From Octopus vulgaris (lineage: Eukaryota): a stretch of 64,000 nucleotides of DNA. Shown here piece by piece: positions 6,468 through 44,040 of the stretch (position 1 is its first letter; the number at the start of each line of letters is the position of its first letter). The stretch spans positions 2,666,001 to 2,730,000 of the forward strand of contig OX597830.1 of the NCBI GenBank assembly GCA_951406725.2. Reading direction: 5' to 3'. The notes beneath the pieces were generated by a model, which was not told the DNA's origin, did not search any database, and was given only the letters and a program-made list of their open reading frames with translations. A program made the translations under genes and the position numbers.

Positions 6468-6942
6468 TGAAAGAAAGAAAATGGGGAAAGATGGATGTAT
6501 GAATAATTTATTTCTATAATATATTTTTTATAATAACAATACAAATAAAGTATGAGTCATAAAGTTCAACAAGAAAATGTGAAAAACCTACAAATATGCA
6601 ATTCTGAGCATTTGCTATCATTTTTAACTAAATGAGAAAGAGCTTCTTCGGGGTTATTATGAGCTTATAGAACAAAAGTTAACATTTTTGTTGGAAGGAT
6701 ACATACAGAAGAGTGTGTATCCTTCCAACAAAAATGTTAACTTTTGTTCTATAAGCTCATAATAACCCCGAAGAAGCTCTTTCTCATTTAGTTAAAAATG
6801 ATAGCAAATGCTCAGAATTGCATATTTGTAGGTTTTTCCTTGTTGAACTTTATGACTCATACTTTATTTGTATTGTTATTATAAAAAATATATTATAGAA
6901 ATAAATTATTCATGCATCCATCTTTCCCCATTTTTTCTTTCA
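6468..6942. repeat. Long near-perfect inverted repeat (foldback IR1), arms ~239/230 bp, 6-nt loop
   Basis: 6468-6706 is the reverse complement of 6713-6942, with a few mismatches and one ~9-nt indel. Followed by (TG)n. Confidence 0.95.
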
Positions 6943-6974
6943 CTAAATATGTGTGTGTGTACACACACACATCT

Positions 6975-7350
6975 GTATGTTAAGATGTTTACTTTTCAAC
7001 CACATGGTTCTGAGTTCAGTCCCATTGCAAGTTACTCAGATCAGACATCTTTTACTATAGCCCCAGGTCAACAAAAGCCTTGTGAGTAGATTTAGTGGAT
7101 GGAAGCTAAGGGAGGCCTGTCCTTTATGTGTGTGTGTGTCTTTATATATATGTCTGACCCCCATCATCCCTTGGCAGCTGGTGTTCGTTTCTTTGCATTT
7201 CTATATTTTAGTGGTTTAACAAAAGAGATTGAATAAGTACCGGGCTTAGAAATTAAGCTCTGGGGTCGATCTGTTTGGCTAAAATCCTCCAGGTGGTGCT
7301 CCAGCATGGTCACAGTCCAATGAGGGAAACAAGGAAAAGATAAAAGATAA
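6975..7350 (+). mobile_element. SINE family B, degenerate near-full copy
   Basis: 'accacatggttctgagttcagtccc', 'ccttgtgagtagatttag', tail 'ggtgctccagcatggtcacagtccaatga..gaaacaag..aaagataaaaga'. Confidence 0.7.
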
Positions 7351-10080
7351 ATACATATATTTTACAATATACTAATGTATTTTATATCGATATCATTACC
7401 AATGCAAAATACCATAAAATATATCAATGAATGTCATATAGATACTGCTACCGATACAAAGGTACAATACAAAATATTATTTGTATGGATTAGTCAACAG
7501 AAAGAAAGGAGGGTACCTATGAAGTTTTCAGAGCTTCGGGGGTTTGTGGTTGAAGAAATCATTTTACATCAGATAAAATCTATTTGAAGGGCTTCCACTG
7601 TTTCTGTCAACCTAATTTCACCCTCAAAGTTTCACTTGATATATGATTACACACCAATCCTCTACGGAACTTAGAGTTCTATACAGCTAATGGCCCTTAG
7701 GTTCTTAAAAGATTTCAAAACAGTTTTTAACCACACAGCAATGTTCCAATCCTTAATAGACTAGGTTACGAGTTCACAAGGACTAAATAATGTACCTGTC
7801 AACAAAACTCATTTCATTTTTTGAATTAGATTACGTGACAAGAATGAAAGAATGAAGAGATGCAGAAACTACACAAAAACTATAACTGAAGACGATTAAA
7901 GAAACGGGAGATTCGTTAAACCTAGTTGTCACTAATTGGTGATTCCTTCATAAGATATTTTGTAAGTTGCCCTCCCTCATTTTGGGCAGCATCCATTTCA
8001 AATTTAAAATCACTGCAAATGCTCAGCCTTGCAATCTCTGGGGATCTTTCTCTGGGATTCCACAAACATAACAAAACTGGACTTCTTCCTCTTCAAAACC
8101 TGGAAATATTTCCCTTTTTATCAGTAGTTGATCTTTTACAGAAATCAATCATATTATTGATCTCTCATTTAGGAAGTGGTGATGGTGGTGGAGGGGGAGG
8201 AAGTAGTGGAGAGGTGATAGCGTAGGAGGTGGAGGAGGAGGTGGTGGTAGCGGCGGCAGTGGTGGAGGAGGAGGTGGTGCTGCTGCTGCTGCTTCGTGAA
8301 CAAACATTGAAGTTCACAGAAAAAGAAAAGGACAATAGTCTAACCCGTAATGGCTCCCTCATCAACAGACTCCAATCTCCATTTCACTGATGTGCTGCCT
8401 CCTCCATCTGCCTGCTCTACTGCTACTACAACATCTACTGCTCCGTTTGAATTAGCTCCTCTCTTTCCCTGATGAAACAGGACATTGGCACCTTGCAACG
8501 GTGCCAATGTTATTTGCTAAGCAAATAACAGACCATTTCTATTTTATTGTTATTGTTGTTGTTTAGTCAAATCCCAATCAGCAGTATTCCAGCCATGACC
8601 ATCCATTTCAGTTTCTTCAAATAATGTGTTTGGTAATTTTTTTTCTCTTTTAACCCAGTTAAATCAAGTTGAGTAAAGCCAAGACCTTTTGCAGAGCTGA
8701 GACTACATTAGCCAATGTGCCCCACTTTAAGGGGTAGCTGGCTGTTGTGACTAGCATTTCATGGAACCACTTAATTGGTTCCCGTGTTAGTTCTACTTTG
8801 GTGTGTTTGAAAGATGCCAGCAAAGCATTAAGTTGGCCTCGCCTTATATCATAGGTCAGTGATATCACAGAAACACACTTCACTAACAACCGTTTTCTAT
8901 CAAATCTCACCGAGAAATCAAAGTCTACCAGAAACATTCATGGTGGTGGCTGTAACGCCAGCACTGCTGCATTTATAGAAAATGGTAAAATGTCAACAAA
9001 TAAAAGCAAAGTTGAAATAATATTAGCCAAACATTACTATGATCCTTGACCGGAGAAACATGTTGATCACTGATACCATACGAGTTAATGAAGAAAACAA
9101 TTTAACTCAAAGAATTCCTTGAAAAATGGCTGCATCTAGTTTTGAAATCATTATCGTGACGGAACCAGGTTAGAGTTGTAATTCCTCACAATCAACATTT
9201 TAAAGTGATTCTTTTCATAGCAACTTCCAAAGGAAAATTAATATCACTTGAAAGAGTTTTTGGTAAATAAGTGACTGGAAACAACAATGCTTTCTGGAGA
9301 AATAATTCAACAGAACCAGAATATTTCCTAAATGGTCTCATGATTGAATGGCTTAGAAAGCTGCAATGGAATTATTCTGAAGACTGTTGAATGGTAAAGC
9401 ATAATTATCCTTGCTGCTTCACTATCATCAAATAAGTGTATAGTCTTCTTTTCTCAAAGGGGAAAGACATTTTGCACCTTGTTTAAAACGAACAGGCTGA
9501 AGTGTCATGAGAATGGCTTAGCTTATAAATGCCAGTAAATTCTTAAGAAACCGTAAATCATTTTTATAATGATATATTTGTATTAAATATCTTACAAAAG
9601 CCTTTAAAATAGTTTGATGAGGCCAGAACAAAAATAATTCAATCTTTCATGATATACATCGATGAATAACAGTTCAAAATATTTAGCTTATTCATAATTT
9701 TATTTTCTTTTCCTCTTCCATAAAGCTATGAGAAATTATCTCTGTATTCAGAGTGGCCATTTACTTGGTTCCTTCTTCTTTCCTATCCAAAATATTATGA
9801 CACTTCTGCTTATTTCCATAGAGGAAATATTATTCTGGTCTTAAATTTTCAATACCATTTTTCATTGAAAGATTGTAAAGCATTTTTTATTTATTTATTT
9901 GTGTGTTTTGTGTTGATAGAGAAAGTTATTAATTGATATACAAAGGGAAGTAGAGGGGAAGAGAGAAGAGCTGAGAATCGGAAGTACCAGACATTGGTTA
10001 CGTTGTGAAAGAGAGAAGAATTTGTAGAAGTAGCATTGTGATTGTGAATTGTGCTGAGTTGAGGAGAGAGATAGAAGGGA

Positions 10081-10111
<31 letters not shown>

Positions 10112-11934
10112 AAGAGAAAGATTTAGTAGAAAACTCCTGGGAGGACTTTGGTCAACTTGGAGCTAAGATATACAATTATTTTATAAAAGTCATTTAATGT
10201 ATCTCAAAGGTGAATTCGGCTATAAATAATAGTTTGTAATATGTTTGAGTTAAAACTCCTTGGCATAGAAAAAAAGACAGAAAACTGCCAGAGGGACTGA
10301 AACAACTCGTTCTTATGTAATCATGACAGATGTATTATCAATTGCACCAAAGTAATCAACCTCTTTTCCGTCAAATGAAACAATTTGATCTCTTTAAGTG
10401 AGATTATTTTAATTCTGACGGCTGAAAAAGAGGAAGAGAAATGTCAATGATGTTTGCAAGGTCTTTGAGGCTGATCAGGGGGTATACTACTACAAGGATC
10501 CACCAAGGATCACCATGTAGCTGCACATGTAGCCTGGGTGAGATAGTTTTCAGGAAAACTGGCAATTGTTCCTACACGTAACTCTACCCTCTCTGTATTA
10601 CCAAGGATTAACCAAAAGGAAAGGCTGCTGACCTGAGTTGATAGAACTTGGCAGTAGTATTCTCAGAGACATTGTGCCCAAAATGGTATGTGCTAGAATA
10701 GTTACAGTAAGGCTTTTTCTCAGACCCTTTAACAGTTTCAGACAATTTAAGGATTAGTGGGAGGGAGGGCCACAAGTTGTTAAATATATTGTTACAATTC
10801 AGTAGTTTGTAATAAGGTGGGCTTCCAGATGCTAAACATTTTTCCAGTTCACTGGTTAGTCGCATCCACATCTAATAGACATGCCATCCCACACATGTGA
10901 ACACTGCAAAATGAGTGTACTCTGTAAATATCAAAAATGAGTGACATTAATAATCTGTGTGCATGTGTGTGTGTGTGTGTGTGAGTGCATGAGTGTGCAT
11001 GAGTGTTTAATTGCATGGACGTAGTACCATTGCCATTGAGGGTTATCTGACATTTGATTATTGCTAGCTGTAAACTATACATAATGGTTCATTGACAGGG
11101 GCACTGCATATGACCCTTTAGTCAGAATCTCTAAGACTAGCAGAAGGGAGGATATTCTCCCCAGATTAGAGATTCGGTCCAAATACTTGTCGCAGAGTGG
11201 AATGTAGTAAAAGGAATCAAAGGTTGTGTGAAGGCATTAAAACCAGGCAATGGATTGTACCTGCCTAACTTTAATAAATGAAAAAAAAGCCTTAAAAGTA
11301 ATGGACAAAATGATAAAAGATAATTAATTAGAAAATTAATTGGAAAAGGTTTTTCAAGGAATAGCAGAGAAATGGTAAAGAAAGTAATGCATTGAGTATT
11401 CTTGTAGAAACCATTGTCTAAAAGATTGCATTGTACCTTATATTTCTTTTTATCAAGAATTTCTGCAATTTATCAGGAAAAATAAACTGCCTCTGATGAT
11501 AACAAAAAAAAAAAGAAAAGAAAAGAAAATATGGCATCAAGAAATAAATCTTCCCAGTTTTAAGAAAAAGAATGTGGAGAAACAATTAACTGGTTTTTCA
11601 TTACCAAATAAATTATTTAATAATTAGTAAGACAATATCAAAGAATTTACAAAGAAAGAATTATTGCTGAACATGATATTCCATGTCTGTTTGAGTGTGT
11701 AGAAAAAAAGAATGGAACAGATGCAAACTTCAAGACAAAGAATATAAAAAGAAATAAAACAGAAAAAGTGTCAAAAAGATCCAAACAAAACAATGCATGT
11801 TTTGGTTTGGAATTTCTCTTTAATTTACAGAGAGAAGAAGAAAAGGGGGAAGCAATTAAGGTATATTAGGAATCTTCTAAGAAATATATACATTTCCCTG
11901 CACGCACACGTGTGTGTGCATGTGTGTCTATGTA

Positions 11935-12000
<66 letters not shown>

Positions 12001-12106
12001 CACATACACATATATATATGTATATGTGTGTGTGTATCTGTGTGTGTATATATACACACACATATATTTATATGTATGTATATATATGAGTGTGTGTGTA
12101 TATATA

Positions 12107-16175: not shown

Positions 16176-16330
16176 TACAGAGTTATATCTTTAGATTTCA
16201 ATTTATATTTAATAAAGATGTATCTAGTCTCCCAATGAAAGAAGTTCTCTTGGAAAAAACACTGGATTTTCAGCAGCTTGGAATAATCATTGGCTGACTA
16301 GTTTCACCTTTCATTAAAGTCTCATCAGTT
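16176..16330 (-). repeat. Hammerhead-like PLE-type terminal fragment, homologous (inverted) to 18320-18462
   Basis: Minus strand reads CTGATGA-gactttaatgaaaggt-GAAAC-TA-GTC. It shares 'attccaagctg' and 'ataactctgta' with the 18320-18462 copy. Stem I does not pair. Confidence 0.55.
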
Positions 16331-16571
16331 AGAAATGAGTATGGACAGAATCATTACAGAACCAGACAAAATGTCTTATAGTATTTCTTTTAGATCTCTA
16401 CATTCCAAGTTCAACATAGAACTTCATCTTCTAAGGTCGAATATCAAATAGAATATCAATGAGGTTAATAGTATTGAATGCCATCCTCTCTACCTAAATG
16501 GTTTGCCTTGTTCCTAAATTAGAAACCATTAGAAGTTCTTAAGTGATCACCAAGTGATGTCATCCAAGCTA

Positions 16572-17824: not shown

Positions 17825-17954
17825 TAAAGTAGAACTACTAAAAAGAAATGAAGATTATTTCAGGCTAACCAAAATGTACATAAATTTATAAGATTCTTTG
17901 CCCGGTACTATTATGACTTGAAGCATAATTATTCATAACTATTGTTGCATTGTT

Positions 17955-18166
17955 CTATATTTAAGAGATGAGGAATTATTTACATTATTTACATTAGACG
18001 GATATTTGTCCTCATCTTGTTTGTTGTTAACACAACGTTTCGGCTGATATACCCTCCAGTCTTCATTTCCCCAAGACACCTGATGAAGGCTGGACGGTAT
18101 AACAGCTGAAATGTTGTGTTAACAAGAAACAAGATGAGGACAAATATCCGTCAAATGTAAATAATG
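17955..18166. mobile_element. Foldback insert IR2 (arms 17981-18066/18083-18168) with hammerhead motif and ~15-bp TSD
   Basis: The arms are reverse complements. Flanked by tattgttgcattgtt (17940-17954) and tattgttgtattgtt (18167-18181). Confidence 0.85.
18075..18120 (+). ncRNA. Minimal type-I hammerhead ribozyme motif (CpG-decayed)
   Basis: gacac-CTGATGA-a-ggctg(loop)cagct-GAAA-tgtt-gtgtt. The opposite arm keeps 'cagccGAAACGTTgtgtt', giving a consensus palindromic stem III and a GUU triplet. Confidence 0.65.
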
Positions 18167-19414
18167 TATTGTTGTATTGTTGCTCCACTTCTTAGTGTCC
18201 TGTGATCTATCTTGAACCATTAGGCAAATTACATTACACCTAACATAATCTCATTAACGTTTTTGCAGGTAGCTGTACTCTATTTTCTTCTCTCTGTTTA
18301 GAAGACATCAGTGAGTCATCACTGATGAGTTTTTAATGAAAAATGAAACTGTACCCTTGATTCTCATTCCAAGCTGTTGCAAGTTTTGTTGGTTAACAAA
18401 GGAAACCACTTAAGCAATGGGACTAAATGCATGTTTATTTAGCATTTATGGATAACTCTGTAGAAATATCGTAAAGTTTATACCTCGCTCAGAGACTTAT
18501 TATTGTCTGTAGAAATATTTATTCATAAACCTCACAGCTTTCATACTCTCAACATACAAATATATAATAGAAATATCATATTCCCCTCCCAAGCATTATT
18601 ACACCTGCCTCTTCTCCCCATCACGCTCCTGCAGCCTACTGACCATATCATCTCTCTCTCTCTCTTTCTGATTACTGTATCATATTTACTACTCCTGCTG
18701 CTTGCCCACCTCACCCTACACTCTTCTGCAACCCTCTGTATCCCCCAACTCATGGCTCCTTGCTCATCCACCCTTCAACCCTACTCATTCTGGCAATCTG
18801 CCCCCCCCCACCTATCCCCTTATTCTACATCCCCCCCACATGCAAGCCTGAAAACCAGTTCTTCAACTCACCCTGTACCTTGTGGGCCACCAATGCAATG
18901 CATCCACATTATATATTCTCTTGCAGCTCTTCTCTTTATTTGTACTTTCTCTTGTGCTCCTTCTTTAGATGTGAGAAGCCATGTCAATCTCTACAAAAAC
19001 CCACATTTCAGCCCCCCCCCCCCCACGTCTTATAGTTCCTTCCCCTCATCAACAATCATGAAGCTGACCCCAACCCCTAGGGTTTGTAGTCTGCAAGCTG
19101 CAGTAGAACTTCAGTAGTGCAGGTGGCATAAAAAAAAAATGGTATTCAGTCCCCACTGTAAAGGGGTTGGCATTAGAAAGAAGGGCCCCCAGCTGTTGAG
19201 ATGGGGCTGAAGCAGACCCTGTAGCATGAAACAGTGCTTTGATACATTGGATCCAGTCAAACCATTCAACCCATGCTGGCATGGAACATGGGCCTTAAAC
19301 GATGATGATGTTGATATCTATATGTATGTATACACACATGCACACGTACACAAATATATGTATACATATTTGTGTGTAAGCGTATATATACATATATATG
19401 TATGGATATATGTT

Positions 19415-19825
19415 CTTTTATTATTTTACTTGTTTCAGTCATTTAATTGTCACCATGCTGGAGCACACACTTTAGTCAAACAAATTGATCCAAGGACTAA
19501 TTCTATTGGTCTCTTTTGCCAAACTGCTAAGCTATGGGGACTTAAACACACCAACATCGGTTGTCCAGCGATGGAAGGGGGACAAACACATACACAAATA
19601 TATACATATATTTGGTAGACAGAAACTGAAAGAAGCCCATTGTGTGTGTATATATATACACATACATAGGGCTTCTTCCAGTTTCCATCTAACAAGTCCA
19701 CTCACAGGGCTTTGGTAAGCCTGAGGCTATAGCAGAAGATACTTGCCCAATGTGTCACACAGTGGGACTGAACCTGGAACCATGTGGTTAGGAAGCAAGC
19801 TTCTTACCACACAGCCACTCCTGTG
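19415..19825 (-). mobile_element. SINE family B, near full length
   Basis: Minus-strand head 'caggagtggctgtgtggtaagaagcttgcttcctaaccacatggttccaggttcagtccc' (A/B boxes). Tail 'tgactgaaacaagtaaaataataaaaga'. Confidence 0.85.
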
Positions 19826-20515
19826 ACTCTGCCTCTCTCTCTCTATATATATATGTGTATGCATGTGTGTGTGTATAGATATATACATAAGAATAGACAG
19901 AAATAATGGGTTATATTCATTTATTAAATTATTATAGACTCACAGTTGGTGCATTTATTTTTATCTTTATTTTTTACTTTTCTTTCTATTTTTATTTGGT
20001 TACTTTTGTTTAGCTTTGTTTTTATTTGATTTCGTTTTTGTTTTATCTTCCTCCTTTAGTACTTTGTGTACTTTACTCTCCAGTCCTATCTAAGAATCAT
20101 ATCTCAGCCTTATTATTGCAGCTGCACCAATAATACTTTGCCCAATGATTTAGAAATGTTATCCACTCTTAGTCTTACCAGTTACAGTTTATTTATTTAT
20201 AATCCATGATTACCAGTTCTCGCTATTTCTGTTAACTGTTTTGTACACAGGTGAATCGCTCATAATTAATTAGATAAACTTTGACACTTTAGGTTTAAAA
20301 CAATTAGCAATATCATAGCAGCTTTTGGCTTGTATATTTGCATCATTTGCAAAATGTAGGAAAACTTCAAAGGCTTGCTGCTGACCATAAGGATGTTGTG
20401 GGATATTAAATTCCTTTACGGATGTCAATACTATTAACCCATGGTAAAAGAAAACAATAGATTAAGTGTGATGTCTAAGAAACAGGTGAATTAGTTCTGA
20501 ACAAATGACTCACTG

Positions 20516-23048: not shown

Positions 23049-23578
23049 TTTTTTTCTTATCATACATGTATTAATTTTGTGATTCTTCTATGGCTTAGAA
23101 GTGTTTGACTTCTATTTTTAGTGAAGCAGGTGCTTATGTAGTACCCTAGTATATATAAATATATTTATATAACTTATATAAAATTTATTGTATACATATA
23201 TATATAGATCATTTTATATCTATCTATCCATATATATATATATAGATCATTATATATCTATCTATCTATCCATATATATATATATATATATCATCATCAT
23301 CATTTAGCGTCCGTTTTCCATGCTAGCATGGGTTGGACTATATATGTATGTATGTATCTATGTGTGTATAATGAGAGTTATTGGTATCTAGAAGACCCAA
23401 AGTGGTAGGTAAGGCTATGTAAGTGCTATGGAAGGATCATAGTTAAACTCTCAGTTTGATAATGATATGAGTAAGGAGTCTAATGTGGGTCTTGTATGAG
23501 TATGTATATGTTAAATAAAATGAGACAACAAAGCCAAGGCTGTGTGGAGTTTTCAGGACATTTCTAAAGAGAGAGCTA

Positions 23579-23626
23579 GTCTTACAGCCATTTCTGGGAT
23601 ATTAGGGATATCTCTTCATCAGAGAC
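23579..23626 (-). ncRNA. Minimal type-I hammerhead motif (antisense arm of IR3)
   Basis: gtct-CTGATGA-agagatatccctaatatccca-GAAAt-ggct-GTA-agac. Confidence 0.65.
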
Positions 23627-23852
23627 GATGTGAGGTGGTTAAATAGAGGGAAATATTAGAGTTCAATATACCACTTCTAAACACACCCCCCCCTTAGATA
23701 ATGGAACTGCAACTAAAACATTTTTATACACTTTTATTTTCATTTCTACATTCATTTTCCTATTTCCTTATATACTCCTTATTTCCTTCCTTTCCAAAAT
23801 AACTCCTCATATTGAACTCTAAATACTTCCCTCTATTTAACCATCTCACATT

Positions 23853-23900
23853 GTCTCTGATGAAGAGATATCCCTAATATCCCAGAAACGGCTGTAAGAC
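23853..23900 (+). ncRNA. Minimal type-I hammerhead motif (IR3)
   Basis: Stem I gtct/agac, core CTGATGA 23857-23863, stem II gatat/atatc, GAAAC 23885-23889, 4-nt loop GGCT, GUA triplet 23894-23896. Confidence 0.75.
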
Positions 23901-24039
23901 TAGCTCTCTCTTTTATAAATGTTCTGAAAACTCCACACAGCCTTGGCTTTGTTGTCTCATTTTATTTAATAAGTGTGTGTGTGTATGTATATATATATAG
24001 ATCAGAGTTACCCTCTCCAAGATGGGATGCCTTCACCAC

Positions 24040-24630: not shown

Positions 24631-24816
24631 ATATATATACATATACATATGTATATGTATGTATATATATATGTAAACATATGCATACATGTGTATGTGT
24701 GCATATATATATGAGTCAATTATGATGATTATATAAATATATGTATACATACGCACACATACAGATACATTCACAGAACACCATATTTGTTAGTAAAATC
24801 CAACAAATATTAACTA

Positions 24817-25230
24817 GACGCAGGAGTGGCTGTGTGATAAGTAGCTTGCTTACAAACCTCATGGTTCTGGGTTTAGTCCCATTACATGGTACCTTGGGCA
24901 AGTGTCTTCTACTATAGCCTCATGCCGACCAAAGCCTTGTGAGTGGATTTGGTAGATGGAAACTGAAAGAAGCCCGTCGTATATATGCATATATATATAT
25001 ATGTATGTGTGCATGTATACATTTGTGTGTCTGTGTTTGTCCCCATAACATCGCTTGACAACCGATGCTGGTGTGTTTACGTCTCCGTAACTTAGCAGTT
25101 CGGCAAAAGAGACCGATAGAATAAGTACTAAGCTTACAAAGAATAAGTCCTGGGGTTGATTTGCTCAACTAAAAGCGGTGCTCCAGCATGACCACAGTCA
25201 AATGACTGAAACAAGTAAAAGAACAAAAGA
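24817..25230 (+). mobile_element. SINE family B, full length, with internal (TA/TG) tract
   Basis: A-box 'tggctgtgtga', B-box-like 'gggtttagtccc', 'ccttgggcaagtgtcttctactatagcc', tail 'gactgaaacaagtaaaagaacaaaaga'. Confidence 0.88.
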
Positions 25231-25259
25231 GCAGACTAATACTACTGTTTCTTCCATTA

Positions 25260-25297
<38 letters not shown>

Positions 25298-27125
25298 AGT
25301 ATTAATAGTAATGCTTCAAATTTTGGCACCACCCCAACAAGTTCAGGTGAGTGGGTAAGTCTACACTGACCCCAGTGCTCAACTGGCATTTACTTTACCA
25401 ACCTTGAAAGGATGAAAGGCAAAGTTGACCTCGGTGGCATTTGAACTCAGGACAAAAACCCAGTGGTAATTGTTAGTGACAGTTAGGGAAGGCAAAGAGG
25501 AGATAATTTTAAGAAATTAAGAATGAATTTTAAAATATTAAATTCAAATGCATCAGGAAATATCTGATGTTTATTAACCGAAAATGTGACAGACATGCAT
25601 GTTTCAGTGTTATTGAACTTCATCATTGAAACAGGTCGGTCATATGCAGCTTAAACTTGCAATTTCACCATTCCCAGGAGAACTACAGCTATGAAAATGG
25701 ATATATTATTCTGTGATAGCTGCAAAATATCCTAGCATTGTTAAATATTGATAATTGATATAGCATTTGTTTATTAACTTAATGTCATGTTATTGGTGAC
25801 TTCAAACAGACATTTAAAGTGATGGTCAAATATGAGCTGGTTCCAGTGTGAGTGGACACTTCAAAGGTTGCTTCATTTTTACCTCTGTTCAAACAATATA
25901 TATTCTTTAAGCTAGCTTTTTGGTTCTTCTAAAGGGAAGTGTTTATTATGACTTTTTTTTCAATGGTACTGTGCCAATGTTGATAAGAAATACAGAAATC
26001 ATAAAATTTCAGATCACACACTAATATTGAATTGGCACAATTTACCAATAATACAACTTTGATTTACTAGCCAAAACCGTTTTTGGCTGGGAAGCTATCT
26101 CAGCTGGGGGTGGGGTGTGTGGGTTGTGCTGATGCAAGAGAAGAAGTAGAAGAACAGATATTCCTGTAAAAGGCCAGCCATTCCTCAGAAGTGTTCTGTC
26201 AATTTTCCTTCCTAGCATAGCAAATCTCTTTCAATCGCATCCAATAATCCTCCTCTCATTACATACAAGCTGAAGTTCCAGGCCAAACTGCAGATTCCAA
26301 TGCCATACTTGAGATTTAGTCTTCATTAAACCAAAGTAGTTTTATTTCTCCTTCCAGTCTCTCTCGAACAAGGCAGTATTTGATGTTACAGATCAATAAA
26401 TTTATCATTTATCACTCACAGATTTTCCTATCGCTACAAATCAATTCGACTCTTGTAAGGATTCTTCTCCATATTCCAACATCAATATGTTCTATTTAAC
26501 CATTGTAGATATAATTTACATTGAGACCACGCAGACAAAGGTCTGCTGGAATTATTCATTTCATATGATAACGCAATAGATACAGCAATTCCAGTCGACA
26601 ATGGAATGGTTGCTACCAATTTAAGTATTGGTGGAATACGTTAATAAGTTATAGTTTTACTATCACAGTCGATATGTTATGGCTTTACAGATTAACAAGT
26701 TAATCTTTGATTAAACAGTAGTCTTGCTTTGAATGCATCAAGATTTTGCTTTGAAATTCTTACAAATTCAACCCACCTACTCAACATGTAGGTTAAGAAG
26801 TTTTACTTTGCAGCCGTGGTGTTTCTAGGTTCAATCTACTCTGAAAACGTTCATTGAGTATCTCCATCTCAAAGCAGAAAGAACTGTACCTTCTGGTAAC
26901 CAAAACTGTGTTTGTACTTCTCTGATTTCATGCACTTTTGTAACAGTAAAGGGAAATTGACTCAGTCCTCCAATAGGTAAGGGACACTAGACAAATACAG
27001 GGGTCAAGGGTTCAATATAGATAATTGATTTAATCTTAGGAGAAGCACGAATTTATAGATTGTAAATTTCTCTGGAACTAAGATTAGAATTTTATATGGG
27101 TAAGTACTTGCTTAACATCTAGTTA

Positions 27126-28414
27126 CGAGGGACGTTCAATAAGTAATGCCTCTGACCCACTTGCAGTTGTTTGATCCAGCTGACATTTTGCATGTGCAAT
27201 TATTTATATCTCTATAGATTAAGTGATAAATTGCAGCTCTGAACTAATTGTGGTTTCTGATTTACAGGTGTTTGAACTGAGTCAAGTGTGAAATGGAGCC
27301 TGTTGAGTGGCGAGCAGTGATCCGGTTTTTGTATTTGAAAGGACGCACACCACGGAAGACTTTTGATGAAATGAAAGTAACTTATGGTGATGATGCCCCA
27401 TCATATGACCTTGTAAAACGCTGGCATCGTGAATTCAAACATGGTCGGAACTCTGTGGAAACAGCTCCCAGATCTGGTCGCCCCCTTCTGCCATTGATGA
27501 GGCATCTGTCCGTCAAGTTGAGGCTGCCATTTTGGAAGATCGACGCATAATTATTCGCCAAATAGCCCATGAGGTCAAGATTAGTACCGGGTCTGTGGAA
27601 ACTATTATTCATGACCATCTGCATATGCAAAAGGTGTCTGCCAAATGGATTCCCAGGTTGCTCACACCTTTCCAGAAGCATGAACGCATCGAGTACTCGA
27701 AGATGAATTTGGAGATGTGCCAAGAAGATGAGTCAAAATTTTTCAAAAGTCTGATTACACAGGATGAAACCTGGGTCCATCACTATGATCCAGAGACCAA
27801 AGCCCAGTCAATGCAGTGGAAGCACCGTGACTCACCTCCTCCAAAGAAGGCAAGGGTGCAGCCCTCCACTGGTAAAGTCATGCTCACAGTCTTCTGGGAC
27901 CAGGACGGAGTAGTGATGACAGATTTCCTGGCAAAGGGTACCACAATTACAGGAGCCTATTATGCTTCACTTTTGAGGAAATTAAGAGAAGCTATCAAAA
28001 TCAAGAGGTGGGGCAAGATCAGCAAAGGCATCCTCCTCCTGCAAGACAACGCTCCGGTCCACAACTCGCGTGTCACCAGATCAGAAGCACAGGCATGCGG
28101 CTATGAACTCCTCCCCATCACCCTACTCTCCTGACCTTGCACCTCTAATTTTCACCTCTTCCCAGCCATGAAGTTGTTTTTGAAAGGAAAGTGTTTCCTA
28201 GATGATGCAGCCTTGATTTCTGAAGTCACGTCGTGGTTGGAGGACCAAGCTGGGATCTTCTATAAAAACGGTCTCCAGAGCTGCATCAAACGATGGGAGA
28301 AATGCGTAACTCTGGGTGGTTTTTATGTAGAAAAATACTAATAACTGTGCCAAATTTCGTTGCTCTACTGCTATGGGAAGTGGGTCAGGGGCATTACTTA
28401 TTGAACGCCCCTCG
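27126..28414 (+). mobile_element. Full-length mariner transposon (~1.29 kb)
   Basis: ~37-bp TIRs (cgagggacgttcaataagtaatgcctctgacccactt / aagtgggtcaggggcattacttattgaacgcccctcg) with TA TSD at 27124-25 and 28415-16. Confidence 0.97.
27293..28341 (+). pseudogene. Mariner DD34D transposase, frameshifted
   Basis: MEPVEWRAVIRFL, RSGRP, KWIPRLL, ITQDETW, LLQDNAPVH, YSPDLA..SNFHLF (third D appears as N). Frameshifts near 27485 and 28120-28145. Stop TAA at 28339-28341. Confidence 0.92.
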
Positions 28415-28418
28415 TACT

Positions 28419-28734: not shown

Positions 28735-29312
28735 ATATATAGACAAAATATGCGAGTTTAGTTCACAGGTGATCTAAACGATTAGGTACGCTATGTAAGT
28801 GCTGTAACAGATTACTAGGGCTCCAAGGCTATAGCCAAGACAGTAGTTATGAAGCTATTGCAGATTTTCGATATAGCAAATATATAGTTGCTAAAGAGGA
28901 CAACAAACATCTCAAGTCATACATTATTATTACCGGAAAAAAAAATTCAAAGTCTCACTGCTGTTTCTGCGATATTCCATCATCAGAAACAAATAGAGAA
29001 AACGAGGAGATAAACGACGTAGAGGAAATACAGAAAGGAATAAGGAGATGAAGAAAGAGAAGAAAAAATAACTTTTATGCTTCTTTCTTCTTCTCTTTTT
29101 TCTTCTTATTCCTTTATTCATGTCCTCTATGTCGTCATTTCATTAATCTATACTCTTCTCGTTTCCCTATTTGTCTCTGATGATGGAATATCCCATACTC
29201 TGGGATATCTCAGAAACAGCTGTAAGCCTGAATTTTTTCTGATGATAATAATGTATATGACTTGAGATGTTTGCCTTGCCTTAACGTTTGTTGTCCTCTT
29301 TAACAATTATAT
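28735..29312. mobile_element. Foldback insert IR4 (diverged arms ~28882-29075/29082-29312) with hammerhead motifs, between (TA)n tracts
   Basis: Inverted pairs include 'taaagaggacaacaaac'/'gtttgttgtcctcttta' and 'aaacatctcaagtcata'/'tatgacttgagatgttt'. Confidence 0.85.
29173..29228 (+). ncRNA. Minimal type-I hammerhead motif (IR4)
   Basis: gtct-CTGATGA-tggaatatccca(tactc)tgggatatctca-GAAAC-AGCT-GTA-agcc. Palindromic ACAGCTGT stem III. One stem I mismatch; the other arm retains agac. Confidence 0.72.
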
Positions 29313-29469
29313 ATATATATATATATATGTATATTCAAATATTCTATAATTAAAAACATAATTATAATTAGGGTCAGTTAATTGCTTCACCACATTTAGA
29401 ATTTAGAAATAGGAGTTAAAAATTCCTTTTCTACTACTGTAAGAATCACCCTAATTTTCTATTATTAAT

Positions 29470-29514: not shown

Positions 29515-29521
<7 letters not shown>

Positions 29522-29690
29522 GGAGAGTTTACGAAAAAACAAAAGACGAAGACAGGTGGTGTACAAAACAAACAGATGTATTAGTATAACGCTCAGGAAT
29601 AGAAAAAGTCTTTTACGCTTCGAGCCTACGCTCTTTTACAGAAAGGGACACAGAAAAAACAAGGAGAGAAACAAAGAGAGAAAAAAAAGG
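29515..29690 (-). mobile_element. PLE-type terminal fragment with variant hammerhead, next to (TA)n
   Basis: Same family as 50780-50960. Minus strand reads cttt-CTGTAAA-a-gagcgtaggctc-GAAGC-GTA-aaag. Confidence 0.6.
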
Positions 29691-29847: not shown

Positions 29848-30510
29848 TTTAATAATATACCTTACATATCTACATACAACCCCAGAAACAAAGAAGCCTT
29901 CACCATCATCACCCAGAATTTACCAATACTTCATAAGGACCCCAAATTAAAGGAAATTCTAAACATACACCAAATCATTAAAAGCTACAAACAACCTAAA
30001 TCACTTAAAAAGATTCTCACAAAGGCAAAATTGTTTTCTGAAATTACGGATGCAAAAGTAAAAAAATGTGGTAGACCGAACTGTGCAACATGTCCAAACC
30101 TGCTAGAAGGATCAGAATTCTTCTTCAAAGAGGGACAGAAATTCAAGATCAAATCTAATTTTACTTGTGCCTCTGAAAACATAATTTGTGTCATAAAATG
30201 CTCGGGCTGCCACCAAGACTACATGGGATCCACGGGACTATCACTCAGATGTAGATGCACACTGCATCGACAACAGATTGCATTCCCAGAATACAGAATG
30301 ATACCTTTTAGTGAGCACATTGAGAAATGCGCAAAGCAACTACTACCACAATTTTTAATCTTTCCATTTTACCAATGTGCTATCGGATCATCAACACAAA
30401 CTAGACTAAACAAGGAAACATTCTTCATTGAAAAGTACAAGCCCAGACTTAACCATTCCAACATACTGATACAGAGAAATTCACCCCAAAGGAAAGGAAA
30501 AAAATTTTAA
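29848..30510 (+). pseudogene. Penelope-like retroelement C-terminus: linker, Cys motif and GIY-YIG endonuclease (Neptune-like), 5'-truncated
   Basis: The open frame extends upstream of the listed ORF: IPYISTYNP..SYKQPKSLKKIL..KCGRPNCATC..FTCASENIICVIKCSGCHQDYMGST..LRCRCTLH..RLNKETFFI..KPRLN. Confidence 0.88.
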
Positions 30511-30619
30511 GCGATTATCTCCCTTACACCGGAAGAAATCACTTATTACCTCCCCTTATTTAGAACTCTTTTCAACATAAACATAACGATAACTCTTCTA
30601 AACATAAACATAACGATGT

Positions 30620-30659
30620 AAGAAATTTGAAAAGCTAAACGCGAAACCGGTCATTTCTT
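30620..30659 (+). ncRNA. Minimal type-I hammerhead ribozyme, U3-A8 covariant core, in the PLE 3' region
   Basis: Stem I aagaaat/atttctt (7 bp), core TTGAAAA, stem II GC(taaac)GC, GAAAC, palindromic ACCGGT, GUC triplet 30650-30652. Confidence 0.78.
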
Positions 30660-31980
30660 CTAAACTATGTCATTGTAAGAAAAAAATTTATAATATTCTT
30701 CAAATATATTGACTCAAATATATATTTTTTAACCTTTTAAAACAAGCCTTCTGTAGTTTTTTCACTTTTTACTATTTTCTATATATATACATATATATAT
30801 ATATTTACATCTATGGATGTATGTATATGTATATGTGTGCATATGTGTATATGTGTGTGCATGTGTACATGTGTATGTATATATATATGCATGTATATGT
30901 ATGCCAATGTGTGCATATGTATGAGTATGCATGTATAAGTATGCACATGCGTTCATGTGAATGCATGTCATCAGCAAGACATTTACTCTTCTCCATCTTT
31001 CATAGTTTCTTTCTCTTGCTCATGCCCAACTCAGTTGAGGGGTCTAACCTTGTGGGCACTTGGTGAACTCATCAGTGCTTGTGCCTCATAAAAAGCACAC
31101 AGTCCATTCTGTTAAATGGTCAGCATTAGGAAGGGCATCCAGCTGTAGAAACTTATGCCAGCATGGAAAAAGGGACATTAAAAGATGATGATGACAACAA
31201 CGGTGAGGTTATATATACATGTGCATATATGTAACACTGACACGTTGTTGCTATGACACAATATGTACCTAAGTGGAGTTATATCAGGTGAATAGTAATT
31301 CAAAGGAGTGAAAACTTTCCCTCAACCCCCGATACTTGTGATGTGGTGCTACCTTAAACAAGATCTATTCTCTGTTGGTGAAGGAAGCCCTACTCTCAAC
31401 TTTCAGTTAAGTGAGTAGAATTAAGAAGATCATCCAACCGTAAACCATTCAATCTCTGGCAATCCACAGAAATGTCTATTATTTGCAGAGACATCCAACT
31501 CAAGTAGAAATATTAATGTTTAAATGTGGAAATAAAAACACAAGTTTTACAAATGCGATTATCGCTGAGTCTTTCCTAATTTCCTCTTCAAAACTAAACA
31601 TTCGAAAATCTCTGGAATCTTGTCAAAAACAAAGATGTAGTAGTGACACATTCGAATACCGCTTTTGACATCTGGTTCGATCAAGCTTCCCAGAAAATCC
31701 TGAATATTTTCTTTCTCTTTTACTTCACACACACAAACTTACTTTCACAAATACGTGAACATACACAGAACTGTAAGCGCAAACACACACACAACGCACA
31801 TACACTCACACACACACACACACACACACATGTATGCTCATGTATCTGCTCTTGTCTTTCATTCTTTGTAATTATCTCTTTATCTATCTTAACTCTTTCT
31901 TCCATGTTCCTGTCTTTCACAGTCTCTCCCCCTTTTTTCCTTACTTCCTCTCTCTCACTCTCTCAGTCCGTCCATACGCA

Positions 31981-32015
<35 letters not shown>

Positions 32016-33540: not shown

Positions 33541-33587
33541 GGTAGTTGTGTGTGTGTGTGTATATATATATGTGTGTGTATATATAT

Positions 33588-33930
33588 ATGGCGTTGCTCG
33601 GGTTTGTTCCTACCCTTTAGAATTGGAATTTTGAAAAGTAAAAATAAGTGAATATTTCTCTGATTGAAATACACCGAAAAATGGCGACACAGCATCAAAA
33701 AATCGTAACAAATAGGGATTTTCATAGAAAAAAAAGCACCTTTTTGATGTAAATCATATTTGGTGTTAACATGGTCCGATTTGAAGGAAAGAAGAGCAAG
33801 CCTTCTTCTATCATTCTCTCTATTTTGGTCAACTTGCGCCGCAGAGTCTCAGAGGAGATAGTGTTAGTTGAAGGCCACCAAACCTGCCATGCACAGACAA
33901 CTTCAGCTTTTATATATATATATATATATA
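33588..33930 (+). mobile_element. Possible non-autonomous Helentron/DINE-1-like (HINE) element, 5'-truncated
   Basis: Starts 'ggcgttgctcgggtttg' and ends 'cagacaacttcagcttttatatata', termini reminiscent of HINEs. Recognised by pattern only. Confidence 0.4.
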
Positions 33931-34177
33931 TCAACAATAAAGGAACGGCCATAATAGGCCATTCACCCACTAGAAATAACAGCCAAAGCTTCAACCGCAA
34001 ATAAAAGTTAATTCAGTAAACCAGGAGAAAATTTAAAAAACATTTACCCTGTTTTAAATTTTTTAATTTTTTAAATTTTCTCCTGGTTTACTGAATTAAC
34101 TTTTATTTGCGGTTGAAGCTTTGGCTGTTATTTCTAGTGGGTGAATGGCCTATTATGGCCGTTCCTTTATTGTTGAT
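33930..34177. repeat. Perfect inverted repeat IR5 (111-bp arms, 26-bp AT loop), followed by ~105-bp extension to (TA)n
   Basis: 33930-34040 is the reverse complement of 34067-34177. Confidence 0.95.
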
Positions 34178-34307
34178 GTTGAACTTAAAAATGGTCTATG
34201 ACTATCTTAATTTTTTCCTACTAGGCCGCTGGTGGCAAAAGAATTCTACAAAATTTTTTTTGCCACCCTATATTGATTAATTATATATATATATATATAT
34301 TTATATA

Positions 34308-34428
34308 CTTTATTTAAAGCAGCAGAAAATTCAACAAAACCTGTTACTCTGAGTTTCCCGTTGTAAAATTTGCAACGGGAAACTCAGAGTAACAGGTTTT
34401 GTTGACTTTTCTGCTGCTTTAAATAAAG
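34308..34428. repeat. Inverted repeat IR6 (~56-bp arms) holding only the 3' half of a hammerhead
   Basis: 34308-34363 versus 34373-34428. Contains GAAAC-TCAGA-GTA-acag. Flanked by (TA)n, with a ~70-bp right extension. Confidence 0.9.
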
Positions 34429-34896
34429 CATATTACTCTGCCACTGGTATTTGAGTACTCTTTTTTCCACCTTGTTTCACATTTATGTGTTTACTCCGGT
34501 ATATATATATATATATCATGATGTATAAAGAAATGCTGCATGTCACTAGAATTTCTTTAACTGAAGGCCACTGCAAACCATTCCAAATGCTTGTTCCTTG
34601 TTATAGCTTGTAATGGTTTGGAATCACATAACATAATGCTAAAGCATATACTGATATTCATCCCTTCAGGGTCGATAAATAAAGTACCAGTTGAGTACTG
34701 GGATCAACTTGAACCCACCCCTGGAATTGCTGGCCTTATGCCAAAATTTGAGACTGACACTAATACCATTATCATCATCACCACCACCACTACTGCTACA
34801 TAAACATGTACATACATCCAACACCAGTATGGCATTTGAGGCTGTTTTGAAACACTGCATCTATGAAAATTGCAGGCATAGCTGTGTGGTAAGACC

Positions 34897-35310: not shown

Positions 35311-35561
35311 TTCACTTTTTCAGTCATGGTCTCTCAAACTCCCACAAAACTCATACCTCAGCACTACATATATATCGCTACTGCACTTACTTCTACTACT
35401 ACTACTACTGCTGCTGCTGCTATTTCCTTCTATCCAGACATTGTTTTCCAATATACTCTTATATCTACAACTTCGATCCCTTTCTCTCACTGCCTCTTCT
35501 TCATCAAATATATTTCTCTCGAATCTATAAGACTTAATACAAGACATTTGTGAAATAGCTA

Positions 35562-35606
<45 letters not shown>

Positions 35607-40860: not shown

Positions 40861-40912
40861 CATCACAGATGCAGATGCATAATATTATTATCATCACCAT
40901 CATCATCATTGC

Positions 40913-40957
<45 letters not shown>

Positions 40958-42674
40958 CATAATTATTGACTCTTGCAGTGTAAAGACGTTTTTTATATTC
41001 TCCTTCGAGACACAATTTGTTCAAGTATTACCAGATGAAGTTTTCTTTGGGGATGCTTATACAAAGAGCTATAATTGCTTCATGAAGGGCAGCCATTAAT
41101 ATGTGGTGGGCATGCAACAAAAAATGAGTTGTTTCACAAGCTTTGAAAATATTAGTTACACACATCACAATTCACACCGAAAATGGCAACTAGGCTTATT
41201 TAACCTACAAGAATAAACACTAGAATGGTTAAAAAAAAAAAAGAACCATCAATACAAAATCAAAAAAGCACTGAATATACAAGAATGGAAAAACTGAAGA
41301 ATTAATCGTACAAATTGTCTCAAGTCCTGAAATAAGTTGTCTAGAAGATGGCAACAAGATCAAATATAGAAATAGCAATAGAACAGTCACATGATTCCAA
41401 ATACAGGGGTCCACTTATTTATACAGCAGTTGCATGAACATTAAACTTCCTTTATTACAAAACGAACATGATATTTTTATATGCATCGTGGTTACCCGGC
41501 AAAAATTTAAGCAGGAGAATTTTGCAAAACTAGCAGCAATTCTTTACCACTGGAGATAATTAAAGAAAGAGTAAAGAAAAATATTCTGTATGTCTGCTTA
41601 TGAAAGAATAGAAATGGGCTAAATCTTTGTTCACACTAAAAGTAACACAAGTTATCCAGTTGTTACATATGTTGGAGTGAAACACTCTATAGGTGAATGT
41701 GTGGAAGAAACGGAAAGTGTTAGAGAAATAACCAGGCAGAAAAATAATGAAGAGAGACAACAAAAAAGAACAACCACCAGTTTCATAGCAACACTAGCTT
41801 AAACTCTGGGAGTGCAGCAAAGTTGTCTTTAAACATAGTACCACAAATTGTTAGATGAGCACATACCATTTTCCCTCACAATACCATCCTGCAGTATTCG
41901 CTTACACCAGCGATGAGGAAGACATCATAATTTCAGATGAATATCAACAAGTAATTGATGACAATACGAAAAGGAAAAAAACAAAACAAAATCAAAGAAA
42001 AAGAAAAGTGAGCATGAAATAAGGAAAACAACTGGGGGGAAGAACAATTTATTCCAGATGACAAGAAGATCTTGCTTCAAGAAAATAATGAAGAAAATAA
42101 AAATAAGGAGAATAAAGATGAACTTTGATTCACTGTTTTTTGAAAAATCAAACCAAGGGATAATAGAGAAATTACGCATCTGTGTTGCTATGGTGCTTCC
42201 GAAGACATTAAAATGGTGAGAAAATAGTTGTATTCAAAGCATAAACAATATGCAAAGTTTAAACTAATATACCATATCCATCTTCAAATAGATTACTCTC
42301 AAGATGTTGCTGTTTCCCACACCAATTGTCTCATAAAATGCTTGTTGGTGCATTTGGTGGTACTCAAACACAATTTGGAAAATAATTCAATAAACAGAAT
42401 CATGGAGTACTCTAATTCAATTTAACCTGTAATCTTTCGTATTTTATTTCCTTTAATAATATTTTGTTTTAACTATTGTATTTTTGAGAGATTTATTGAT
42501 TTTTAAAAAATTGATTTCCAATTAAATATGTGAGAATTTGAATGCTATTGTGTGTGTATATGTGTGCACTTATAGTGTATATGTATGTATATATGTGCCT
42601 GTGATTGTGTATGCATGTATTATATAGCATTTTCACCCTCACTCTTGTATTTGTAAACTAGTTGAATTTATTTC

Positions 42675-43098
42675 TCTGCCAGGGCTGCTGACTGGCACCC
42701 ATGCTGGGTGGCACGTAAAAAGCACCATTCGAGCATGATCACTACCAGCGTCGCCTTATTGGCATTGTGCTGGTGGCACGTGAAAGACAACTTTGAGTGA
42801 GGTCGTTGCCAGTGTCGCTTGACTGGCTCCTGTACAGGTGGCACATAAAAAATATCTCTTGAGCGTGGCCGTTGCCAGTACCGCCTGACTGGCCCTTGTG
42901 CCAGTGGCACGTAAAAGCACCCACTACCCTCTCGGAGTGGTTGGCATTAGGAAGGGCATCCAGCTGTAGAAACTCTGCCAAGATCAGATTGGAGCCGGTG
43001 CATCTTGCTTGCCAGTCCTCAGTCAAACCATCCAACCCATGCCAGCATGGAAAGCGGACGTTAAACAATGATGATGCTGCTGCTGCTGATGATGATGA
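42675..43098 (+). mobile_element. RTE-type 3'-tail element with ~4 tandem modules and (GAT)n tail
   Basis: Repeated 'gtggcacgtaaaaagcacc..gag..cgttgccagt', then 'ggcattaggaagggcatccagctgtagaaac...ggacgttaaacaatgatgat'. Confidence 0.85.
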
Positions 43099-43489
43099 AG
43101 TACATATCACGAGTTTACATTTAACTATTTTTATTTGAATATTGGCTCTACAAGTCACTCGCCCATTCTGGGTTCCTCTCAGATCCTCGTCAGGAACTCA
43201 ATTCTCATATGTTTAGTTGTTTATATGCAAGTTTCTTCTTTCTAACTTTATTTATCGAGGATCTGTTTTATAGGTAGATACTCTTCTTGTTACTAAGCCA
43301 TGTCTGTTTTATTTGTTAAGCGATCTATTATTTCATCTCTTCAAAGGAACAAAGGTAGCAGAGGACTTGTTGGCAGAGGAAATGACATCATCACTTAAGT
43401 TCAGTGGCTTTTGGAGGGTGCAAGTGTAAAGAAACATAGGAATACATACGCACTTTTGTATGTGGAAGTATGTATATATATATATATAT

Positions 43490-44034
43490 ATTCAGTTGAA
43501 TATGGTATTTAAGTTAAAGGCACAAGAATTTGGTATGGCATTATCCATATAATTCAAATTGGGATGATTATAATCAAAATAAGCAACAGGGATATCCAGA
43601 GGTTCTACCTCAAAGGGATCTTGATTTATGGCTCTGCCACTTAAACTGTCTTTTACTCTATAAAAGATAGATTCTTGTTTTTCCACTGGACCTGATAGAA
43701 TAGTCTTAAACCACCACCCCAGGTGGAAATCTAAACAACAAAGTAAAACCAATGACAAGCAGTATCTTCATGGAAAGAAATATCAGTTACTTCTATATTT
43801 TTGTTGATGAAACTTGTTTCTCTGTCTATCTACTTAACCTCTTTGTGATTTTGGTTAATGGAATAACTATAAAAATGAATCTTTTAAATTTAACTAAATT
43901 CTATATTTGTATGCAGCTGAAGATTACTCTACATTTTAAAACTGATGTATGTAATACTTGCATTGTTCAATTAAATGGAGTCGCATGAAACGATCGTACT
44001 GCATTACCTCTGGATATCCTTGTTGCTTATTTTG

Positions 44035-44040
<6 letters not shown>
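43490..44040. mobile_element. (TA)n-flanked insert with 35-bp inverted arms (43569-43603/44006-44040) and a degenerate hammerhead-like motif
   Basis: tataatcaaaataagcaacagggatatccagaggt / acctctggatatccttgttgcttattttgattata. CTGATG(t)A..GAAAC-GATC-GTA at 43942-43998. Confidence 0.65.

Follow-up and report, generated by a model that had tools for sequence, protein, structure and literature searches.

Head-to-head foldback inserts in an Octopus vulgaris genomic window: seven Penelope-like and hammerhead repeat families with near-strict tail asymmetry

The window, a 64,000-nt stretch of Octopus vulgaris contig OX597830.1, contains seven inverted-repeat inserts, which are members of seven unrelated high-copy families and not of a single one. 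What is new is a near-strict tail asymmetry within the inverted pairs: the partner was tailed in 43/43 pairs of one family selected by its untailed end (F5) and in 0/23 pairs of another selected by its tailed end (F6). We consider it probable that each foldback consists of two 5'-truncated copies laid down in one insertion, with both target strands nicked, reverse transcription (RT) begun at two sites and the resulting cDNAs joined. The foldbacks themselves are an expected product of Penelope-like elements (PLEs) and do not represent a new element class.

Seven inserts from seven families

Self-BLAST of the window recovered all seven local inverted repeats (IRs) described in an earlier sequence-only reading, and family-based mapping set the limits of their arms. 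These features and a nearby PLE (family FA) are, in window positions:

IR1, family F1, 6430-6945: tailed arm 6430-6706 (-), untailed arm 6713-6945 (+)
IR2, family F2, 17952-18168: 5'-truncated arms 17952-18066 and 18066-18168, head to head
IR3, family F3, 23371-23969: tailed arm 23371-23670 (-), untailed arm 23669-23969 (+), tail ~135 nt
IR4, family F4, 28743-29314: tailed arm 28743-29068 (-), untailed arm 29083-29314 (+), tail 137 nt
FA, 29848-30791 (+): 5'-truncated Neptune-like PLE with CxxxxCxxC linker and GIY-YIG
IR5, family F5, 33930-34283: untailed arm 33930-34052 (-), tailed arm 34067-34283 (+), tail ~105 nt
IR6, family F6, 34303-34500: untailed arm 34303-34363 (-), tailed arm 34372-34500 (+), tail 67 nt
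IR7, family F7, 43484-44043: tailed arm 43484-43603 (-), untailed arm 43600-44043 (+), tail 91 nt

The common plan attributed to these inserts, with an extension on a single arm, was found in each of the seven. IR5 and IR6 lie where they had been placed but are longer, their tails reaching 34283 and 34500, respectively, and IR2 adjoins a 9-bp target-site duplication and not (TA)n. The arms of IR1 are 99% identical to each other. An inverted partner lay nearby in 13/28 (F1), 26/30 (F2), 14/28 (F3), 18/30 (F4), 43/56 (F5), 23/30 (F6) and 7/29 (F7) loci. As a control, three non-IR common repeats within the fetched loci had such a partner at one given end in 18/310, 12/206 and 2/98 cases and at the other end in 16/310, 18/206 and 2/98, overall 2-9% of hits.

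The inserts had been viewed as one recurring family of non-coding derivatives, possibly mobilized by elements like the one at 29848-30760. Neither part of this view was supported: the seven family references share no DNA similarity apart from a 37-nt hammerhead stretch matching between F3 and F4, none was similar at the DNA level to full-length FA copies, and four families have ORFs of their own. Their identification as PLE ends carrying minimal type I hammerheads with a palindromic stem III was borne out. [quoted passage not shown] Judging from sequence, IR3, IR4, IR6 and IR7 each represent, in 5'-truncated form, the 3' end of a separate coding Hydra-like PLE; IR1 is probably another such case, with a suggestive ORF link. 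Only IR2 and IR5 are non-autonomous among the seven.

GIY-YIG endonuclease (EN) fragments occur in decayed ORFs upstream of F3 (Pfam E 9e-4, below the cut-off), F4, F6 and F7. RT fragments were found for F3 (L311, L309), F4 (L450) and F6, here within the inverted arm of L399; none was seen upstream of F7 in the examined loci, and the 3' UTR of the F7 PLE is ~2.3 kb. The linker has the form CxCx5C in F3 (CNCRPGTIC-type), F4 (CNCSSETDC-type) and F7 (CNCRTKSHC). Both F6 copies (2/2) read CNF, with F replacing the second C, and so depart from this form. RWK and DKT motifs were seen in F3 copy L309 only. In F1, 2/25 loci have related EN fragments ~1 kb upstream, in antisense orientation. The source PLEs of F3, F4 and F7 are decayed, and that of F6 is young; F6 has 4527 exact tail ends.

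Hammerhead core motifs were confirmed at their reported positions in IR2 (18080, +), IR3 (23622, - and 23857, +) and IR4, where GUG forms the cleavage triplet of the left hammerhead and stem I of the right one contains a mismatch. Of the two hammerheads described as partial, that of IR6 does consist of a 3' half only, whereas that of IR7 (43911-44004) is complete, with its core at 43917 and not at 43942, and has a loop II of ~60 nt. The IR1 core is mutated, GAAAC being deleted in both arms, and IR5 is without a hammerhead, its arms ending 9-21 nt before the F5 family cleavage site. FA has a U3-A8 variant at 30620-30659. A strict structural descriptor matched the whole window only at 30627 and nowhere within the seven IRs (background, 0.01 hits per shuffled window); an earlier strict descriptor was blind to bulged stem II forms. 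The hammerheads of the window are mostly decayed or absent. Rfam gave no hammerhead among the 150 of its 155 window matches that were listed, nor in 8 loci; the minimal and long-loop forms found here lie outside its models. The long loop II inserts of F1, F5 and F7 escape short descriptors as well as Rfam. Conservation of the hammerhead across copies was tested and found for all seven families. An intact core was present in 11/28 (F1), 15/30 (F2), 14/28 (F3), 12/30 (F4) and 21/29 (F7) loci, counts that score truncated copies as misses, and the F6 core is mostly CCGAUGA with some CUGAUGA. We propose that pLTR duplication incidentally placed hammerheads on both strands and that they are not a designed pair.

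Tail asymmetry and the origin of the pairs

Every one of the seven families has two fixed 3' ends, with the tail optional, and a variable 5' truncation. Among 56 F5 loci picked by the untailed end only, 43 had an inverted partner, in each case ending at the tail; among 30 F6 loci picked by the tailed end only, 23 had one, of which 21 ended at -67. Arm lengths did not follow the tail. The untailed arm reached further 5' in 26/43 F5 pairs (tailed arm in 13, tie in 4) and in 10/21 F6 pairs, the latter count covering 21/23 pairs after exclusion of L385 and L387; duplicate loci were left out throughout. At the most, the untailed arm reached 4 kb vs 0.55 kb for the tailed one.

The F5 junctions comprised 22 with microhomology, 18 with an insert and 3 blunt. 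Since junctions vary between copies, the foldbacks were formed per insertion and not amplified as units. Two F6 junctions do recur at short palindromes, in six copies each, but the query behind that sample contained junction bases and biased it; the unbiased F6 sample gave varied junctions. We regard it as very improbable that the foldbacks are non-coding units amplifying whole and mobilized in trans by FA. The abundance of FA (20302 candidates, ORFs up to 895 aa), the non-autonomous nature of F2 and F5 and the two recurrent F6 junction types would suit this idea, but it conflicts with the differing junctions of unbiased F5 and F6 loci, with the ORFs of the four families and with their lack of DNA similarity to FA. 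General arm-to-arm gene conversion was also rejected: in F2, F3, F4 and F6, arm-arm identity approximates copy-copy identity, the outliers being IR1, IR3, L015 and L072. Because the two identities are about equal in the old families, F5 is the only family in which template sharing can be seen.

The window's own junctions are not cleanly bridged by independent contigs, as might be expected of assembly artefacts. Other head-to-head F5 and F6 junctions nevertheless occur in contigs of other runs, the arms differ, are asymmetric and end at family-specific positions, and F2 pairs are flanked by target-site duplications of 9-14 bp in 12/19 cases (permuted mean 0.9, max 6). An artefactual origin is extremely unlikely.

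Self-priming has been put forward, according to the available part of PMC3846280, to explain Penelope palindromes of head-to-head type in a rotifer: a single cDNA or antisense RNA would fold back and serve as its own template. It would agree with the short palindromes at many junctions and with the variants that arms have in common. Such snap-back copying from a tailed strand, however, needs an untailed arm nested in the tailed one. It is contradicted at the loci where the untailed arm is longer unless two template classes are assumed, and both outer ends, which lie on (TA)n, are at fixed positions within the element. That either arm may be longer thus argues against simple snap-back, which we judge improbable.

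Under the two-cDNA reading that we favor, the element's enzyme would nick both target strands, each of two RT start sites would give one primed cDNA, and the cDNAs would then be linked 5' to 5', presumably by end-joining via 1-7-nt microhomology or short inserts. A dimer may act on one RNA or on two RNAs of one source locus; the variants shared by arms fit one RNA or two transcripts of a homogeneous source array alike, and L355, the only locus in which the variants of both arms alternate, has no clean monomer register across its arms. In vitro, a PLE enzyme predicted to be dimeric nicks and extends both strands, and RT begins at two sites bounding the tail (PMC11167929), the two-start result coming from a single Poseidon element and not from Hydra.

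The putatively tRNA-headed family F2 and the tandem repeat F5

From its sequence, F2 reads as a SINE with a tRNA head, a hammerhead and a Penelope-type end. The unit is ~272 nt long with a tail of ~25-29 nt. Compared with tRNAs of this genome, represented by 8 anticodon types, its head matches colinearly with a score of 58 vs shuffle maxima of 42-45. Box A and box B motifs were read by eye, and ARAGORN and Rfam found no tRNA in F2. Counter to the one-tail rule, 2/26 pairs are tailed at both ends. F2 may be mobilized by a borrowed Penelope/Poseidon-type enzyme.

F5 has the sequence features of a young, protein-free tandem hammerhead repeat, a non-LTR retrozyme, of which IR5 is the shortest form (tip). 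The monomer is 493 nt long (35% GC; longest ATG ORF, 66 aa), hammerhead cores are intact in 144/148 monomers, and folding of the hammerhead region gives z -3.5. Up to nine monomers make up an array, which is flanked by (TA)n, and no autonomous partner was found among the fetched loci. We counted 34 variants that all monomers of an array have, 13 partial variants and 84 singletons; the arms of one insertion had 34 variants in common vs 3.3 with arms permuted (reached in 0/2000 permutations). F5 likely inserts as whole arrays by the same back-to-back route, and the arrays may reflect repeated rounds of copying on a self-cleaved, probably circular monomer.

A more specific proposal, to which we give slightly less than an even chance, is that a PLE dimer works on one RNA, with both (TA)n strands nicked and both sites primed, and that a circle yields arrays in one step. 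The RNA would be bound across the tail, and with both start sites on the same molecule each inverted insertion would receive exactly one tail. Internal priming would not need an RNA 3' end and could therefore run round a hammerhead-made 493-nt circle, producing tandem arrays that lie back to back. We place somewhat less weight on the arrays having arisen with no circle, by local unequal crossover or slippage or from linear multimeric transcripts. Local amplification is put forward in the available part of bioRxiv 10.64898/2026.07.22.740005, and the 13 variants common to only some monomers and a near period-3 pattern in L235 would suit it. Moreover, 5' ends cluster just before the cleavage site (33/96 in 29 nt; flanking bins, 1 and 4; L368, with an N gap, and L235, at a fetch edge, left out), as expected of run-off on cleaved linear RNA. 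This cluster could instead reflect stalling at structure, as another hairpin in the F5 unit collects 8/96 ends. Against an origin without a circle, some insertions carry rare variants that every monomer of the two arms has (L330, 9/9; L319, 5/5), and arrays start exactly at RT start positions on (TA)n.

If the one-RNA dimer proposal is true, F5 would provide direct genomic evidence that retrozymes of animals are mobilized by PLE rolling-circle RT, and F2 would be a tRNA SINE using the same machinery. Being young and short, F5 is also a ready substrate for tests of rolling-circle copying.

Relation to known elements

Thousands of insertions in this genome offer a countable rule, with one tail per pair, independent arm truncation and a common template. 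This speaks against simple self-priming and links each of the two strands with one of the two RT start sites seen in vitro. Our literature search, outside subscription papers, Repbase and supplements, found no statement of the one-tail rule, no account of retrozyme arrays whose ends bear PLE insertion signatures and no PLE-mobilized tRNA SINE. Fig. S9 of PMC7229834 and the files of bioRxiv 10.64898/2026.07.22.740005, both sources available in part, may bear on novelty. The origin of PLE tandem and inverted structures has been called unresolved (PMC8557442), and PLE mobilization of animal retrozymes has so far rested on co-occurrence and phylogeny.

For Penelope elements, truncated copies arranged head to head and tailed on one side have been described before (PMC8557442, Fig. 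2 legend; PMC3846280). In the available parts of these two sources, as here, an inverted copy lies at the 5' end, the tail is often one-ended, and microsatellite bias, junction palindromes and a pLTR hammerhead are described. Tails here measure 67-140 nt in five families compared with the 30-40 nt described there, the one-tail rule is backed by counts and near-strict, and the shortness of most copies leaves nothing but the palindrome. Among C-terminal EN+ PLEs, the Hydra clade (PMC8557442) resembles our families in the CxCx5C linker (F3, F4, F7), the RWK/DKT motifs (F3) and the (TA)n targets; 3' UTRs here are ~1-2.3 kb, F6 has F for C, and the placement is by motifs. Minimal PLE hammerheads (PMC4209133) likewise have one additional base separating positions 9 and 10.1, a palindromic stem III and the U3-A8 variant seen in FA, and pairs on opposite strands, 100-700 bp apart, have already been described for them (PMC4209133). 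The loop II inserts of 58-75 nt in F1, F5 and F7 are a difference.

The Sm-alpha/Sj-alpha repeats of schistosomes are SINE-like hammerhead repeats that combine, as F2 appears to do, a tRNA-like head with a type I hammerhead. F2 differs from them in its PLE-type two-end tail, its 9-14-bp duplications and its head-to-head arrangement in 26/30 loci.

F5 resembles metazoan non-LTR retrozymes, as the available parts of PMC7229834 and bioRxiv 10.64898/2026.07.22.740005 present them, in its tandem non-coding monomers of 35% GC and its single type I hammerhead per unit. PLE mobilization and tandem cDNA from circles were proposed earlier in the same two sources. The F5 unit, at 493 nt, exceeds their range of 150-450 nt and has an extended stem-loop II of ~60 nt, and F5 array ends bear a complete PLE insertion signature of two fixed 3' ends, one tail, an inverted junction and (TA)n, which was not found in those parts of the two sources.

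Inverted repeats of the window and their families

Self-BLAST of the window recovered all seven inverted repeats proposed in the sequence-only reading. Each consists of two head-to-head 5'-truncated copies (arms) of its own repeat family, F1 to F7 for IR1 to IR7, respectively.

6430-6945, IR1
17952-18168, IR2
23371-23969, IR3
28743-29314, IR4
33930-34283, IR5
34303-34500, IR6
43484-44043, IR7
29848-30791 (+), Neptune-like Penelope-like element (PLE), family FA

Mapping against family copies placed an extension (tail) on a single arm in every one of the seven and revised the ends of IR5 and IR6, which reach 34283 and 34500. The hammerhead core motifs reported in IR2 to IR4 were also present where that reading placed them. 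Only the hammerhead at 30627 passed a strict descriptor in the window, and the hammerheads of the window copies are mostly decayed. Two more similar CTGATGAG...GAAAC motifs, at 16328 (-) and 18322 (+), lie beyond the listed repeats and may belong to another PLE end.

A genome search with each arm gave first-look candidates for F1 (164), F2 (1331), F3 (4127), F4 (2476), F5 (792), F6 (328) and F7 (3358), with 40 candidates scored and 30 loci fetched per family. These counts are lower bounds, since for F6 alone the genome holds 4527 matches to an exact 32-nt pattern from the tail. A nearby inverted partner was found at 24-87% of loci of these families versus 2-9% of hits for three common control repeats, counted per hit in fetched loci, overlapping loci included.

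The view that all these repeats form one family was not borne out, as the seven references had no DNA similarity to one another except a 37-nt F3-F4 hammerhead match. Nor was a tie to elements like the one at 29848 supported, with zero DNA similarity between the references and full-length FA copies. With 20302 candidates and an 819-aa reverse transcriptase-endonuclease (RT-EN) ORF, FA is an abundant Neptune-like PLE in its own right; its hammerhead is the U3-A8 variant described previously (PMC4209133).

The proposed mapping of arms to PLE 3' ends held for F3, F4, F6 and F7, each below its own GIY-YIG ORF. Walking upstream through natural copies crossed approximately 1-2.3 kb of non-coding 3' UTR and reached GIY-YIG ORFs in a decayed state, whose linker is of the CxCx5C type but lacks the second cysteine in F6. 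Copies of F3 and F4 also yielded RT fragments, and a single F3 copy showed the RWK and DKT motifs. By motif match, and with the second cysteine of F6 absent, these ORFs would fit the Hydra clade, which inserts nearly always into (TA)n (PMC8557442). In F3 (loci L252, L259) and F7 (L282, L295, L305), the endonuclease linker is preceded by Asn-rich inserts of (AAT)n that resemble those of rotifer Penelopes (PMC3846280). For F1, a possible link to such an ORF comes from related EN fragments, which were found upstream, antisense, at 2 of 25 loci.

The two arms of an insertion in old families are about as similar to each other as separate copies are, IR1 being an outlier (99% vs 83%). Its arms differ by about 10% from the F1 majority and have 19 variants in common (8 private), and common deletions remove the hammerhead. 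No close sibling was found among 40 scored of the 164 F1 candidates. Late arm-to-arm conversion and re-mobilization of a dead copy are suggested as alternatives.

A near-strict rule of one tail per inverted pair

In each family, copies end at one of two fixed 3' positions, which are separated by 25-140 nt. Against junction bias, F5 loci were chosen by the untailed end (56 fetched from the first 100 listed of 174 exact sites) and F6 loci by the tailed end (first 30 of 4527). An inverted partner was present at 43 of the 56 F5 loci, and all 43 finish at the tail. For F6, 23 of 30 loci had one, ending at -67 in 21, at -73 in one and as an internal match in one; none of the 23 was tailed. Tailed partners were likewise absent in F3 (0/14) and F4 (0/18), in agreement with this rule, and 2 of 26 F2 partners broke it. 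Junctions differed between loci (in F5, 22 with microhomology, 18 with inserts and 3 blunt), which speaks against the idea, raised for checking earlier, that inverted pairs are amplified as a unit with one junction.

Both strands are nicked and extended in the work of PMC11167929, where two RT start sites bound the tail and a dimer is predicted. The one-tail rule would follow if both start sites served one event, one per strand; two cDNAs, truncated independently, would then be joined at their 3' ends. Self-priming, the proposal of PMC3846280 for inverted pairs, would leave one arm nested within the other, and most F5 pairs contradict it: the untailed arm is longer toward 5' in 26 of 43 (10 of 21 in F6). 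Because 34 of 42 F6 arms extend beyond the cleavage site, uncleaved RNA would often be the template, in line with the in vitro dispensability of hammerhead cleavage (PMC11167929).

A tandem hammerhead repeat and a probable tRNA-headed SINE

The F5 unit, a putative retrozyme, is a non-coding tandem repeat of 493 nt (35% GC; best copies about 99% identical). Its type I hammerhead has a stem-loop II of about 60 nt, and 144 of 148 monomers keep an intact core. Arrays hold up to nine monomers, and their starts coincide exactly with the family's fixed ends on (TA)n. At 54 loci with both arms, of 70 analyzed, 34 variants were common to both arms, which disagreed at 29; permuted arms had 3.3 in common, and the observed fraction was reached in 0 of 2000 permutations. 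Among sites covered by at least three monomers, 34 variants were fixed in all monomers (4 locus-private), 13 were partial and 84 were singletons. Rare variants fixed across both arms imply passage through a single monomer, of which rolling-circle copying, as proposed in PMC7229834, would be the simplest cause. Linear multimers transcribed from a locally amplified source are possible, such amplification being favored in bioRxiv 10.64898/2026.07.22.740005. In one array of eight or more monomers (L235, G000:C1:31726000-31735900), variants recur at a near three-monomer period. Of 96 F5 5' ends, 33 fell in the last 29 nt upstream of the predicted cleavage site (neighboring bins, 1 and 4) and 8 gathered at a separate hairpin; the pile-up is compatible with run-off on cleaved RNA and also with a stall at stem I.

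The F2 unit (about 272 nt) comprises a tRNA-like head, (AAT)n, hammerhead and tail. Its head aligned to genomic tRNAs with a score of 58 (shuffle maxima 42-45), and neither ARAGORN nor Rfam called a tRNA there. Target-site duplications of 9-14 bp flanked 12 of 19 pairs, with a permuted mean of 0.9.

Neighboring repeats and known systems

Full-length FA copies L231 (G000:C10:22731500-22738500), L234 and L232 have two overlapping frames, an upstream ORF of 492 aa (323 aa in L232) and an RT-EN ORF of 819-869 aa; canonical PLEs have a single ORF. A frameshift or an intron is possible. A further repeat anchored on (TA)n lies at 29515-29690 and 50732-50943, next to the FA fragment; it bears a hammerhead-like motif in minus-strand orientation and had an inverted partner in 0 of 42 hits. 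A mariner-like element occupies 27124-28416 (Transposase_1 match at 27433-28131, E 5e-25); its inverted ends, 39 nt each, lie at 27124-27162 and 28378-28416. An abundant SINE-like repeat lies at 24815-25231, 19378-19885, 3417-3590, 6973-7373 and 50508-50751, and in L232 (5713-6543), where two facing copies flank (TA)n and form an 844-nt palindrome.

Searches of the open-access literature turned up neither a near-strict one-tail rule combined with independent truncation, nor signatures of PLE insertion where retrozyme arrays end, nor a tRNA-headed SINE that terminates like a PLE. PLEs are already known to form inverted 5'-truncated copies tailed on one side (PMC8557442), and hammerhead pairs on opposite strands had been described by 2014 (PMC4209133), so the headline of the sequence-only reading was largely known.
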